A DNA stretch of 64,000 nt from an uncultured Methanosarcinales archaeon (GCA_964362365.1 CAYIEF010000002.1:908-64907), one strand, 5' to 3'; positions 33,001-39,000 are shown, counted from the first letter of the stretch. Numbers are program-made.

Positions 33001-36000
33001 ATCTACTGTGCGCAGTACGCGCCGGCAATGGATTAGATAACGTCCATTTAGAAATGGCAAACAAGAAAGGCATACAAGTCTTTAATTGCCCAGAGTTAAG
33101 CAAGGAAAATGTTGCTGATTACACCATGGCGATGCTGGTTAATCTGACCAGAAACCTGGTAAAAGCTCATCTCTCCATGTTGGAAGGAAAATGGGATAGA
33201 GATGTACTGACCGGGTCAAGTTTTAAACATAAAACGTTGGGTATATTAGGTTTGGGAAGGATTGGAACTGAGGTTGTTATAAGGGCTACAGCGCATGGCA
33301 TGAAAGTTATAGCTCATGATATTGAAAAAACGAAGGGATATGCTACAAAATATGGAGTTATTTTAGTGTCATTACCAGAATTGCTCCGACAATCAGATTT
33401 TTTGACTTTGCATCTCCCCTTGGATGCTAAAACGCATCGCTTATTCGATAAGGAGAAGATAGCTTCCCTCAAAAAAGGTGTTTATATCGTTAATTCTTCC
33501 CGGGAACAGCTCTTTGATTTCCCAGCTTTGGTGGAAGCGATTAAAAGCGGCCAGGTTGCCGGATACGCTACCGATGTTTTTGAAGAAGAACCGCTTCGTT
33601 CAGAACATGAGCTGATCAAACTTGCAAAACAAGGATATAATGTCCTATTAACTCCGCACATCGGTGCGCAAGTTACAGAGGTACAACAAAGCATCGCTCG
33701 TGACAGCGGTAAAAAAATAGTTCAATTTTTTGATAGCTTAGGATCAAAGTGAAGGTAGAGCGTAAACGAACCTTCATCACAAAAAGATTTAGTATTCAAA
33801 AACCTTTTAAATTCACGATTTGTTCCAAATGATTTATATGAAACAAAATATGAGAGTTTTAATAACTGGAATTGGAACGGTCGCCGCACAAGGTTTTGTA
33901 AAAGGAGTGCGGCAGCAGGATGAATTTAAGGTTTACTTGGTAAGTACCGATGCGCGGGAAGATAATGCTGGGAGATATTTCACCGATGCTTTTTACAAAG
34001 TTCCTCGCGGAGATGATCCTGCCTACGTCGCGGAGATCATCAAAGTATGTAAAAAAGAAAAAATTGATCTGCTCTTTCCCGGTGCGGACGGGGAAATCAT
34101 GGCTCTTTCTCAACATAAGGAATCGATAGAGAAAGAAACGGGAACAAAGGTAGCGGTTTCTCCTTTCGAAGGAGTTAAGATCTGTGATGACAAATATCTG
34201 GCTTACACCTATTTTGCGAAACATCATTTTAAGACCGTGCCAACCTTCCTTTTGGAAGAAGCAGTTGAGAAGGTGAAAGCGGGAAGATTAGCTTTTCCTT
34301 TGTTCATCAAACCTCGCATAGGCACTGGATCAAAACATACTCATGTTGTCCATAATTTAGAAGAGTTGCAGGAGAAAGCAAGCCTAGTGCCTATACCTAT
34401 CGTTCAACCATATTTAGGCGCATGGAAAGAATTCAGTGTTGATGTTGCCGCTGATTTTAACGGTAAAGTCTTGGGGGTAGTTCCCAGAACCCGTGAAGAA
34501 GTACGCTACGGCGCAGCATATCGGGGAGTTACGGTTAAGGATCCGCTCTTAATCTCTATGGCTAAAGAAATAGTGGAACATCTTGGTTTGATCGGTCCTA
34601 TCAATGTGCAAATTTTCAAAAATCTGCAGACCGGAGAAGCACTGCTCTTCGAGATAAATCCACGTATTGGAGCGACGCATGCTCATACCATTGCCAGCGG
34701 ATTAAATACGCCGCATTTGATGTTAAAGTTATTTAACGGGGAACAACTTGAGCCAAGATTAGGGAAATTTAAGGATAAATTGTGGATGTACCGGCACTGG
34801 GATGAAGTGTATGTGGAAGAGAATGGACAACGATTGCCTAGAAATTATAAATTATTATGAACAAGAAAATTATCTTTGATTTTGATGGCACGCTCTTAGA
34901 TGTGCGTGAGCGGTATTATGCTGTTTTTTGTGAAAGTTGTGCCGTGATAGGGGTGCCCCCTCTTTCTAAAGCGGTGTATCTCGGTCTTAAAGAAAGGGGA
35001 AAAAAAGATTCTCAGATTTTAGAAGAAGAATATAATTTATCTCCGGATATCGTTAATCGATTTAAGAAACATCGTTATTCGATCTTAGAAGAGAGCCGAT
35101 ATCTTGATATGGATGTTTTACATACACCAGTACCAGCGCTTCTAAAAGATCTGCAGGATAAAAAATATGAATTGATTCTTCTCTCCTTGCGGGACAATAT
35201 TTCTGCTAGTTTGGCTCAGTTGAAAAAATTAGGAATTACAGATTTCTTTTCTACTATAGTCTTTACCGGCCCAGTTGTTCCTGGGCAGAGCCATGCTCTG
35301 AGAAAATACCAGCGTTTGATGGAATATTTTTCTCCAGAGGAGCTAGAAGGAAATTATTATGTCGGGGATACGATGATAGATATTGAGACTTCCTCTCAGC
35401 TGGGCACAAAGATGATTTTTGTAGATTGGGGTTTGGATAGCGTAGAAAAGGCGGATACATCAAAAATAAGTTTTATGGCGGAAGATGTTACTGAATTGAG
35501 GAAGATTCTTTTGAAGTAGAAAAACAAGAGATATGCGGATACTAGAGGTTATAAAGTATTTTTTCAAAAAGATATTTTGCGCGGGCATATGCCAAAAGAT
35601 TAAAAACGTCAACATTTTACTTACCAACTAGGGATGATTCGTGAGTATACACTTACGATACTCTTGATAGAGTGATTGGTGTGGTGAATCCTGATGGTAC
35701 TACCAAAAATATTACCTTCGATCGGAAGAATATTACTGATTTTGACGAGAATGGGCACAAGCATATTTACACAATAGATGGCTTGGATAGGATAACTCAT
35801 GTGTATGAATTCATGACCGATGCGCATGCGGGGAATGAGATATACCTCACAAGATATGAGTATGATACCAATGACAACTTAGTCTTGATAACAGATAGTC
35901 AAGGGAAAGATTTGCCAATTGTTTCCTTCTAAGGAAGGGAATGCTGAATACTACTTCAAAGTAGTAAAAATAGAAAGATTTAAATAATAGTTGCGCAACC

Positions 36001-39000
36001 TCACATTTACTCGTCTGAAAATATAGAAAACCTTAAATAATACTTCCGCAACCTCACAAATATGAAAACCAGCGATTTAGTCCAAAAATTAGAAGGAATT
36101 TATACTTTAGAGTCAATCATGGCAGCTCTTAAGGTAGATCGCAGTACGGCGATGAATTATATCTCTAAGCTTCGAAAACAAGGCTATGTTAAAACAAAAC
36201 GAACCAGCAGTGGTAAAAGAATCTACAACATTTCCAGGCTGAATAAAATAGGTGGTAAGAGTTATTATGAAGTCTTAAATCAAGTTTCTCCCATAAGACT
36301 TTCAGAAGCTGAAACGTATAAAGTGTATGGAAGAGACATAAGCTATGAAGAGACGCTTGTGTATGCGCTTAAAACAGGAAAGCTACGGGTTGTTCTTTCC
36401 TCGTTGGCTCTGTTCAAACATATCAATAACTGGACACAATTATCAGAGCTTGCTCGTAAGAATTCTGTGCAACGGCAGGTCTGCGCCTTGTATGAGTTAG
36501 CACGTTCTATCATAAAAGTTAGAAAGGTACGTAAGCAATTTTTGAAAACGTGTCTTCCAAAAACAGACGATACATATCTTTATATAATCCCAAACTTGAA
36601 ATCGAAGGATTTTATTGAAATTCAGCAGAAATGGAAAGTATATTTGCCATTTAATAAAGGAGACCTCCAGGAGTACCTTCAAAAATGATAAACGTCACTG
36701 GTCAGCAGAACTTATTGTTGAATATAGCTCGAAAGCTGCCGAAGAAAATAACAGTGTATGCTGTTGGTGGCACTGCGATGATGTTTCACGGTTTTAAAGA
36801 TGTCACACTCGATATAGACTTAGTTTTTACGTCTGAAGAAGATAGGAATGCGTTCAAATCAATAGCTGAGGAATTGGAATATAAACGATATGATCATAAA
36901 TTGGTGTACGGAACAAAATCAAATCCTCCTCTCATGCTGCGTCGTGGAAAAGGTGAAGAAGAAGAAAGATTTGACCTTTTTACAATAGATGTTATTGATT
37001 TTGTCTTCTCTGAAGAGATGATGAAGCGAGCAAAAGATACATACGAATTTGATCATAAGCTGATATTAAAAATTGCTGATCCACATGATATTATACTTAT
37101 GAAATGTGCGACGGAAAGAGTGAAGGATAAGGATGATGCTCGGCAGATTATGAATAATTCTAAACTCAATTGGCAGATTATTATTGATGAAGCACTCAAT
37201 CAAATAAAATTAGGAAGAACTAAAGCGATATGGTATTTGACTGGTTTTGTTACCGATGTCAAAAAGATTGGGGGGAATATTCCTTCTGACGTGCTCCCAA
37301 AGCTCTACAAATTGTTAGAAAAACAAGGTGATACCAAAAGTTAGGTGTTACTTTTTTGTAACGCCTCAGTTTGCTAATGAAGAGTTAGTATATGTTTAGA
37401 TTCAGTGACGGCCAGATACTCTCATTCCTAATGTCTACGATCCCCAATCATTAAATCGGTATATGTTTGAGAGGGGGAATCCGTATGAGAATGTGGATAA
37501 GAAGAGTATTATTTAGAAATGGTTCTGGGTCTTCTTCATATGCCCAACATATCCAGCATAACTCATCACCGGCATGTTGTTTTCTTTTGCAAAGGAGAGA
37601 AACGTCTTGACGATAGAAGCTTCATAGTCCTGACTATTATCGCTATACATAAACGGATGTAAGTTTGGAGCGTACATCATGCCTTTACCATGCGCTTTTA
37701 CTAATTCTTCTCGGTAGTATGCGCATGCTTCTGTAACGTCCTTATATGGTGAAATGTTCTTCAATAATATGTGAGTATCATGCCAGCCATGGGTAGGGAC
37801 TTCGATAAGCCCGTTTTCATGTACGTAACTTTCTCGTATTTTTCCTTCTTCTTCTAGGAGCGCGGGCGGATGGTCGCCTTTCCCCACTAAGTCTGAAGAG
37901 ACAAAGCGGATTCCGTTTTTTTTAAGAATATCCAGAACTGCCGGCTCTCCTTGAAGTCCTTTATAAAATCCAATAGGAGTTTTGAGTCCAAATACTTTAA
38001 CTCCTAATTTACGTTCTATGATCTGGTTTGCTTTCTTGATTTCAGTGTCTATTTCAGAAAGAGAAATTGGTTTTCTATTTTTTTCACGCATGTATCTTTC
38101 ATTCGTTTTTATGAGGGGATGAGAATAAGTGTGTTGTTGAATATCAGCTAAATCACCCGCTAAAGCGAGTTCTTTTTTTAATTCCGCAACGTAATCATCA
38201 TACTCCAACAGTTTTCCCAGTATGAAAAAAGTGAAGGGGGCATTATAAGCTCGATGGAGAGCGATGATCTTTTTTACTCCCTGCAAGGAGGCCATCCTAT
38301 CTTCCGGAGACATGTATCTTTCCACATCGTAGCCCATAACCAGGATAGGATTATTCATGGCCTGGTAAGCAGTATCCTCATTTATAAAATTTTCTTTGGC
38401 AGAAGCCCTGTAGAAAGTCTAGAAAAAGTCGCCTTGGCCGTTCATTCGGTTGGCTTCACGTTGGTATCATTATACGTAATTCACTCTTTTTTTGTTAGAA
38501 GCCAAACAATAATCTGGTCTTGAAACATGTTCCTCACTCACCTCTTGGCCTAGGCGGCGACTTTTTTTACAGAGCCTTTGGCAGAAGGTTAGCTTGTATA
38601 TCATAATCTTTAAAAACGAGCTTTCTCGTAGCTGTTTTATGAGGAATGTGCGGATCATACCTAGGTTAGATGTGAAAGGCCCTAATGTTGTGAAAGGGAT
38701 TAGACTGGAAGGATTGCGGGTTTTAGGAAAACCAGCTGAGTTAGCAAAACAATATTACGAACAAGGCGCAGATGAAATTTTGTATATCGACATCGTGGCC
38801 AGCTTATATGAACGAAATAACTTATCACAGGTCGTAAAAGAAGCAATTTCGTTAGGCGTGTATGTGCCCATGGCAGTGGGTGGAGGCATACGGACATTAG
38901 AAGATATCCAAGAATTGCTGTATGCAGGTGCAGATAAAGTGGCTATCAATACTGCAGCAACTCGTAATCCTCGATTAATCACTGATGCCGCGAGAAGGTT

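Follow-up and report, generated by a model that had tools for sequence, protein, structure and literature searches.

The two-gene cassette described here lies within the glycan locus of an uncultured Methanosarcinales archaeon, in a 64-kb window, that is the whole stretch of DNA that was analysed and whose positions serve as coordinates throughout. It consists, on the plus strand, of a gene for a two-domain winged helix-turn-helix (wHTH) protein of 208 aa (36062-36688), hereafter the partner, followed by a gene for a Pol-beta-type nucleotidyltransferase (NTase) of 219 aa (36685-37344), which belongs to the DUF6036 family and bears the signature GGTAMMFHG...DIDLVF. As judged by comparison across genomes, this cassette is a two-gene module of DPANN archaea that is complete in itself and moves horizontally. 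By analogy with characterised systems, the balance tips slightly in favour of an autoregulated MenT/AbiEii-like toxin–antitoxin (TA) module, in which the upstream protein would repress the operon and also neutralise the NTase, the latter being a latent toxin in this scheme.

The two open reading frames (ORFs) are joined by a 4-nt ATGA overlap, exactly as an earlier reading of the sequence alone, hereafter the sequence-only reading, had described them, and the arrangement with the HTH gene upstream and the NTase gene downstream holds as a unit far beyond this window. A scan of one genome per GTDB species returned 156 encoding stretches, i.e. the cassette is present in at least 156 species-level genomes, and 80 of these loci were fetched for comparison. 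In all of these 80 species-level DPANN loci, the HTH gene is directly upstream of the NTase gene on the same strand, with the 4-nt overlap retained in 62 of the 68 loci where both starts could be called. Homologues of both proteins number in the hundreds, share 50-65% identity, keep near-constant lengths (~206 and ~218 aa) and all originate from DPANN archaea, labelled as Woese-, Nano-, Pace- or Aenigmatarchaeota. The window itself is identical to a 93-kb contig assembled from Hainich groundwater. Regarding the flanking genes, they are unrelated from one locus to another, the 248 ORFs collected falling into 219 clusters. Of note, many of the metagenome-assembled genomes (MAGs) carrying the cassette, from binchicken/ERP assemblies, are labelled Methanosarcinales, yet their cassette proteins group with those of Woese- and Nanoarchaeota, and these labels are probably taxonomic errors.

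The suspicion that the pair had been picked up by the glycan island is borne out by empty sites in relatives as well as by a copy in a different locus. The cassette belongs to an inserted segment of 2,043 nt (35495-37537), extra with respect to the empty-site relatives, which sits between the 3' ends of the convergent genes for a HAD-hydrolase (stop at 35519) and a polysaccharide deacetylase (stop at 37513). In two relatives (L093, GCA_030697505.1, and L094), whose deacetylases are 84% and 77% identical to that of the window, the sequence is colinear with the window up to 35494/35510 and again from 37538/37545, the HAD-hydrolase and deacetylase genes being ~60 nt apart at this empty site. The inserted segment consists of the cassette between two pieces of RHS genes, one from the repeats and one from the core end, and its guanine-cytosine content is 0.35-0.38 vs. 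0.40-0.47 in the flanks. Besides, a block of 1.58 kb (35949-37491) comprising both upstream repeats, both genes and the RHS-end piece recurs, 84% identical, in an RHS/IS110 locus of a 171-kb contig (L087; JGI 3300027835). Because this block includes the repeats together with the genes, the cassette moves with its own control region, and in the window lineage it seems to have travelled as a passenger of RHS-array DNA. In a third lineage, a Band_7 gene is found at the same HAD-hydrolase/deacetylase junction (L090, 6827-7723; L091, 4017-4913), which is a recurrent insertion point.

Upstream of the partner gene, the two tandem direct repeats reported by the sequence-only reading, 53 bp apart from start to start, extend over a full length of 40 nt (35966-36005 and 36019-36058) with 85% identity. 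Their 26-nt core, TTAAATAATAnTTnCGCAACCTCACA, is identical at 24 of 26 positions between 35980-36005 and 36033-36058, and a 32-nt comparison of the repeats matches at 26 of 32 positions, whereas shuffled sequences match at 15.5 on average (99th percentile, 18); within the window, GCAACCTCACA occurs exclusively at the two repeat copies. The proximal copy (36019-36058, plus strand) comprises a BRE-like (B recognition element) AGAAAA, a TATA element TTAAATAA (36033-36040) and a box CTTCCGCAACCTCACA (36043-36058) ending 3 nt before the ATG. As had been pointed out, this second copy supplies a TATA-like box close to the gene start, TTAAATAA starting 29 nt and being centred ~25 nt ahead of the ATG. 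The proximal copy is predicted to act as the principal promoter, from which a leaderless mRNA would start, and to place the operator over the transcription start. The distal copy (35966-36005, plus strand) comprises an A-rich BRE-like stretch, a TATA-like TTTAAATA (35979-35986) and a box GTTGCGCAACCTCACA (35990-36005), and is predicted to serve as an auxiliary operator; it may be a second promoter as well.

This layout is recovered across the orthologous loci. A TATA box AATAGAAAnnTTTATATA starts 29-31 nt ahead of the ATG in 62 of 72 loci, in the form TTTATATA or TTTAAATA and mostly preceded by AATAGAAA, which is the geometry expected of an archaeal promoter giving a leaderless mRNA. Between TATA and ATG, the box usually reads GCTA[C/G]ATT[T/A]AAC, and GCAAC[C/A]TCA[C/T]A in the window lineage. 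The 16-nt box of each locus was then compared with the 100 nt further upstream, which offer ~90 possible positions; its best match there lies at a distance of 51-54 bp in 50 of 66 orthologous loci, 35 of which have exactly 53 bp. The identity between boxes is 11.9/16 within a locus vs. 9.5/16 between loci, a within-locus value reached in none of 5000 permutations. In the distal copy, the box is preserved best (within-locus identity 0.74), a TATA persists in 33 of 50 loci and the A-rich BRE-like part has not been preserved (0.34), so that the distal element in most loci is predicted to serve as a further binding site and not just as another promoter; in the window, in L087 and in L007, the duplication covers the full 40 nt. 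Since 53 bp corresponds to five helical turns, both sites would lie on one face of the DNA. The protein side varies accordingly with the box type: HTH residue 29 is K in 34 of 44 loci with a TACA box and M in 13 of 14 with a TAG/TAA box, and residue 48 is L in 19 of 26 of the former and Q in 15 of 17 of the latter, these residues belonging to the recognition-helix region and the wing of the HTH. As to specificity, the 405 kb of loci, i.e. flanks of ~8 kb per genome, contain the 12-nt box core (with at most one mismatch) a single time beyond its own operator, and the window has no further occurrence. Taken with the phased two-box layout and the co-variation both within loci and with HTH residues, the repeat-type autoregulatory operator proposed by the sequence-only reading gains strong comparative support, and the operon is quite probably autoregulated through its upstream boxes.

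Two other explanations of the repeats were tried and rejected. The sequence GTTGCGCAAC forms a perfect 10-bp palindrome in the distal copy, which the proximal copy has only in degenerate form and which L007 lacks; because this palindrome is not conserved, the binding site is regarded as asymmetric. An origin of the repeat as a generic promoter is likewise discarded, GAAANNTTWAWATA being present once in the window and the box just twice, and the orthologous distal copies usually dropping the BRE-like part and retaining the box. Of note, one MAG (assembly CAYHOW01) harbours two divergent cassette copies (L012 and L068) with different box sequences, which is consistent with insulated paralogous modules.

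Concerning the NTase, which the sequence-only reading had taken as AbiEii-type, the formal family proves to be the uncharacterised DUF6036 (PF19502). The window protein itself matches PF19502 with 18.9 bits (E 1.4e-3), below the gathering cut-off of 23.6 bits. Of 24 aligned homologues, however, 23 match it at E<=0.01, the best at 3e-7, and PF19502 is precomputed for most homologues in the database, which NCBI names 'DUF6036 family nucleotidyltransferase'. At the family level, this assignment is sound. In the library searched, there were no papers on DUF6036, a family without described function, partner or operator. Pfam AbiEii (PF08843) matches none of the 24 members at E<=0.01, nor the window NTase at E<=1, and NCBIfam gives no match to the NTase. 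In the AlphaFold model of the NTase (predicted local distance difference test score, pLDDT, 93), a Foldseek search against the PDB places the MenT1 toxin first (8an5/8an4; E 3e-6 to 5e-5, top probability 1.0), further matches being LnuA (4fo1, E 3e-4), the DUF1814-type JHP933 (E 4e-4) and the uncharacterised TM1012 NTase.

The residues that are invariant in the family alignment (A1), namely G28, G29, K38, T41, D43, R95, D97, K140, R145, K147, D148 and D151, to which D45 can be added as nearly invariant (>=90%), arrange themselves into recognisable motifs. Motifs I/II read I-G28-G29-x13-D43-I-D45 with an invariant basic K38, in agreement with the AbiEii pattern hG[GS]-x(9-15)-DhD; a segment resembling motif III, in which a Lys stands in a hydrophobic context (KLxAaxxR), reads L-M-K140-C-A-T-x-R145, with a spacing shorter than in AbiEii; and motif IV, K147-D148-x-x-D151, is an exact and invariant +DxxD. 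Motifs I/II, III and IV were defined by Dy et al. (2014), who described the '+DxxD' pentad as DUF1814-specific (PMC3985639). Moreover, in T41-L-D43, a Thr invariant in the same alignment stands two residues ahead of the first catalytic Asp. In MenT1 and MenT3, T39 (T39-x-D41) and S78 (S78-x-D80) are auto-phosphorylation sites, and a Ser/Thr at this position is strictly conserved (PMC11375011). T41 may thus be the equivalent of the MenT phospho-site, a correspondence drawn at the level of the sequence pattern. The NTase thus resembles MenT/AbiEii toxins in its motifs and, as far as the model allows to judge, in its fold, and no further.

The partner begins with a MarR/ArsR/Csa3-like winged helix (~residues 1-65), thus sharing the N-terminal wHTH of AbiEi-type proteins, and ends with a helical domain (~residues 90-208) of no recognised family, which is an all-helical bundle in the model (pLDDT 89). 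A sequence-profile search of the PDB with the partner family returns MarR wHTH only, NCBIfam gives only generic wHTH matches, and AbiEi (6Y8Q) and Rv2827c are missing among the listed structure matches. The partner is predicted to be both the repressor of the operon and the protein partner of the NTase.

Support for a physical association comes from natural fusions. An exhaustive profile search with the NTase recovered 796 representative clusters at E<=1e-3, 36 of them at E<=1e-30, and among the distant relatives are proteins of ~550 aa composed of a TrmB-type wHTH, a second wHTH, a middle domain and then the DUF6036 NTase (P0290, P0293, P0325 and 12 others, i.e. the 15 sequences of alignment A3), one of which comes from the Candidatus Altiarchaeales WOR_SM1_86-2 MAG. 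In this alignment, the homologue of the partner is detected with an hhalign probability of 89% (E 2e-6), from the wHTH into the beginning of the C-terminal domain with its conserved EE[TI]L, and it is followed by the homologue of the NTase (99.9%, E 9e-36), in the same order as in the cassette. Against single fusion sequences, the partner profile finds nothing by hhalign, its match being significant solely against the alignment of the 15 fusions. All fusions retain the catalytic residues as well as the Thr, their T332-x-D334 being the equivalent of T41-L-D43. Following the Rosetta-stone rationale, fusions uniting both homologues suggest that partner and NTase act as one physical unit, in line with the binding of AbiEi to AbiEii (bioRxiv 10.64898/2026.01.19.700257); by themselves, they do not prove a TA relation. 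Two other architectures were encountered in the course of the search, namely a 271-aa NTase with a C-terminal TrmB wHTH (P0291) and a 637-aa Na+/H+ exchanger fused to a DUF6036 NTase (P0341).

From these elements, the following mode of action can be proposed. A BRE/TATA promoter ~30 nt before the ATG would, given its conserved geometry, drive a leaderless bicistronic mRNA, on which translation of the NTase would be coupled to that of the partner via the ATGA overlap. The wHTH protein would bind the asymmetric 12-16-nt box between TATA and start site, as well as the copy 53 bp upstream on the same DNA face, and thus repress its own operon, as suggested by the conservation, phasing and protein–DNA co-variation. 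The NTase would be an active enzyme that inhibits growth when free, its most plausible action being the addition of nucleotides to the 3' ends of tRNAs, as with MenT1, MenT3 and AbiEii; toxicity, tRNA target and phospho-control of the NTase are all analogies. The C-terminal domain of the partner would bind the NTase and hold it inactive, possibly by inducing auto-phosphorylation of Thr41, a control proposed because of the motif identity with MenT1 T39 and MenT3 S78 and because of the Rosetta-stone fusions. Having entered the glycan locus along with RHS debris, the cassette would then persist as an addiction or defence element. A bolder version, possible though on the doubtful side, is that wHTH/DUF6036 pairs would form a DPANN-wide, unannotated, MenT-like, translation-targeting TA or abortive-infection family, with a new antitoxin domain, Thr41 auto-phosphorylation in trans or, in Altiarchaeales-type fusions, in cis, and two same-face operator sites five turns apart.

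Several observations weigh against a TA module of this kind. The best fold match, MenT1, has a template-modelling (TM) score of just 0.47-0.56; across the fold matches the TM score is 0.42-0.56, and the non-toxin NTases LnuA and TM1012 score alike. A sequence-profile search of the PDB with the NTase family returns nothing. Membership in AbiEi/AbiEii, as put forward in the sequence-only reading, does not hold in profile comparison: the PADLOC AbiEii model matches 1 of 24 members, which is the window NTase itself (E 0.006, over residues 7-65), the PADLOC AbiEi model matches 2 of 22, in the wHTH region only and with weak E-values, neither PADLOC result being robust, and the Pfam AbiEi models match no member of the partner family. 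Nor does the partner look AbiEi-like as had been claimed, since its C-terminal domain shows no AbiEi-like or MenA-like fold match in lists that are dominated by the wHTH, the domain not having been searched alone. The two proteins are unusually conserved for a TA pair, with near-uniform lengths and mean column identities of 71% and 55%, and the IMG/VR viral contigs scanned contained no copy of the cassette. TA systems seldom have antitoxin and toxin joined in one chain, and such a fusion would suit a non-toxic regulator-enzyme just as well. As a caveat on the operator, the suggestive tracking of box type by HTH residues is confounded by phylogeny.

The high conservation and the fusions indeed favour two rival explanations, in which the cassette would not be toxic. 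The pair could be an enzyme operon, in which the NTase would nucleotidylylate a small molecule (e.g. an antibiotic, as LnuA/ANT) or a housekeeping substrate under a MarR-like, ligand-responsive wHTH repressor, and which would spread as a resistance or fitness gene. Such an operon would agree with the presence of LnuA (4fo1) and TM1012 among the fold matches, with the MarR/ArsR-like wHTH of the partner, with the high sequence conservation of both proteins and with a DUF6036 family of no known function, but it leaves aside that the best fold match is the toxin MenT1, that '+DxxD' and a Ser/Thr two residues before DxD are hallmarks of DUF1814/MenT toxins, that strict 1:1 linkage, 4-nt overlap and partner fusion are atypical of resistance genes, and that no Pfam resistance-NTase family matches; on the whole, it is deemed unlikely. 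Alternatively, the two proteins could form a transcription-factor complex, the NTase acting as sensor or modifier of the DNA-binding protein (e.g. by nucleotidylylating it, or by sensing nucleoside triphosphate levels) with gene regulation as the output. The fusions, which hold two or three wHTH domains and the NTase in one chain, the TrmB wHTH that terminates P0291 and the conserved operator architecture all speak for it. The box, however, lies before the cassette with a single exception in the ~8 kb per genome examined, a more distant regulon being conceivable, and a regulator whose sole visible target is its own operon needs an effector output; together with the variable genomic context of a mobile unit, this makes the complex unlikely.

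A reversed logic of the MNT–HEPN kind (classical type VII) can also be envisaged, where the NTase would be an antitoxin nucleotidylylating a toxic partner. NTase antitoxins do exist, as MntA/HepT (cited in PMC6393860), the C-terminal domain of the partner is an all-helical bundle and a separate minimal NTase gene is found elsewhere in the window. Against this, neither protein alignment contains a conserved instance of the Rx4-6H HEPN motif, the MNT profile Pfam NTP_transf_2 reaches just E 0.16 for the window NTase, the NTase, with its MenT-type motifs, is roughly double an MNT in size, and the partner has a DNA-binding domain and an upstream position like an antitoxin/repressor, all of which makes such a reversal highly improbable. 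As for the enzyme operon and the regulator complex, the mobility of the cassette, its self-restricted operator and its toxin-type motif set count against both, and the autoregulated MenT/AbiEii-like TA module is retained as the best explanation.

Regarding the immediate surroundings, the neighbouring genes are of glycan type (Polysacc_synt, glycosyltransferases, NeuB and polysaccharide deacetylase). The RHS remnant noticed near the pair corresponds to a truncated RHS/YD-repeat gene fragment (35645-35932, plus strand; Pfam RHS_repeat, E 2.2e-5), open in frame after a TGA and devoid of its N-terminus, to which a second piece can be added, namely an RHS core-end fragment ending in ...IPNVYDPQSLNRYMFERGNPYENVDKKSII* (~37409-37516, plus strand). 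The latter lies inside the 1.58-kb block common to L087, is 87% identical at the protein level (tblastn) to residues 206-235 of a 393-aa YD-shell ORF of that contig and, by this comparison, travels with the cassette. The left edge of the common block is a hairpin-forming inverted repeat, TACTAC-TTCAAA-GTAGTA (35949-35966, plus strand), kept in L087, where nucleotide homology begins at 35949; it could be the terminator of a former upstream sequence or a recombination site. Directly after the NTase stop codon, a GTTAC-TTTTTT-GTAAC hairpin with a T6 run (37347-37362, plus strand) is a possible archaeal oligo-T terminator; as a family trait, such a terminator was discarded, a run of at least five T within 60 nt downstream being found in just 25 of 67 loci. 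An Rfam scan of 35400-37700 detected no RNA family.

Within L087, positions 1-9223 encode in order an RHS protein of 1893 aa (SpvB/TcdB/YD-shell), the 393-aa YD-shell ORF, small ORFs, an IS110 transposase, the cassette and an orphan RHS C-terminal ORF of 207 aa with a Gly/Ser-rich tail, then two small ORFs that are possible immunity proteins; this arrangement is that of a polymorphic-toxin locus, and the RHS arrays of DPANN archaea may merit a separate look. Elsewhere in the window, a gene for a minimal nucleotidyltransferase of 103 aa (50219-50530; GIFGSYSRGE...SDVDILV), MNT antitoxin-like, is followed by a non-coding-looking stretch, of which 50924-50958 resembles 37412-37449 (84% over 38 nt). 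The 'shared repeat' mentioned in the sequence-only reading is probably this element, and the region 50219-50958 may be a second insertion of TA/RHS debris in the same glycan island.

In DPANN archaea, few defence systems have been recognised, CRISPR and restriction–modification being under-represented and AbiE and SoFic enriched (PMC12988326, a 2026 survey). As the PADLOC AbiE models match almost no member of the cassette family, surveys based on hidden Markov models would probably miss it; were the DPANN-wide family proposed above to be confirmed, defence catalogues including PADLOC would miss a common immune or addiction element of small-genome archaea. If the cassette is a MenT-like toxin module, the superfamily of NTase toxins controlled by auto-phosphorylation would gain a new family, DUF6036, which would thereby receive its first functional hypothesis. 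It would also provide a compact, sequence-defined archaeal repressor–operator pair, complete with promoter, box, 53-bp phasing and natural specificity variants. The ~550-aa fusions, too, offer a natural test, namely of whether partner and NTase act as one complex.

Among known systems, MenAT1 and MenAT3 of M. tuberculosis (PDB 8AN4/8AN5; PMC10435456, PMC11375011) bear the closest structural resemblance through MenT1, the best match to the NTase. In both cases, a Pol-beta NTase with a Ser/Thr two residues before DxD and a C-terminal Lys with acidic residues is preceded by its partner gene, and MenA3, like the partner here, is a two-domain wHTH protein, which autoregulates. The present pair nevertheless shows no detectable sequence-profile relation to these proteins, and the TM score is just ~0.5. 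The partner here has a C-terminal domain of no recognised family, in contrast to the small helical peptide MenA1 and to the AbiEi-like MenA3, and the host is archaeal with a BRE/TATA promoter and, as predicted, a leaderless mRNA.

With AbiE (Streptococcus agalactiae, Lactococcus; COG5340–COG2253; PMC3985639, PMC7319586), the cassette has in common the upstream wHTH protein with a C-terminal domain, the downstream NTase with motifs I, II, III-like and IV (+DxxD), and a negative autoregulation that would likewise operate via two promoter-overlapping repeats. The organisation had been called classic type IV, a dated label since AbiE has been reclassified as type VII, its antitoxin binding the toxin (bioRxiv 10.64898/2026.01.19.700257). 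Differences reside in size and family, AbiEii being of ~290 aa and DUF1814/PF08843 vs. ~219 aa and DUF6036 here; in the spacing of GG-x15-DxD, which is x13 here, and of the motif III Lys to the motif IV Asp, 19 residues apart in AbiEii vs. 8-11 here; and in the upstream protein, no AbiEi model matching the partner beyond the wHTH. The operator differs too: the operators of AbiE and Rv2827c are inverted repeats 3-13 bp apart (PMC7319586), that of AbiE consisting of two 23-bp inverted repeats separated by 3 bp, whereas two direct repeats 53 bp apart are found here.

Two further systems can be likened to the cassette from their descriptions. PygAT of Pyrococcus yayanosii (cited in PMC11375011) is an archaeal NTase-type TA system that resides on a genomic island and has the conserved Ser/Thr of the MenT phospho-site, PygT differing from the NTase here as a member of COG2253/DUF1814. 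The HEPN–MNT systems include cls.004259/NEQ050, a DPANN-specific and unusually conserved MNT–HEPN fusion found in housekeeping contexts (Makarova et al., PMC6393860, Table 1), and thus offer a precedent for an NTase-containing, TA-like element unusually conserved in DPANN, the cassette differing from them by having neither a HEPN motif nor an MNT-profile match. Closest by formal family are the NTases of DUF6036 (PF19502)/DUF2204 (PF09970), the first being that of the NTase here. By analogy, then, the cassette would work like AbiE and MenAT yet belongs to different protein families, and it looks like an undescribed cousin of these TA systems.

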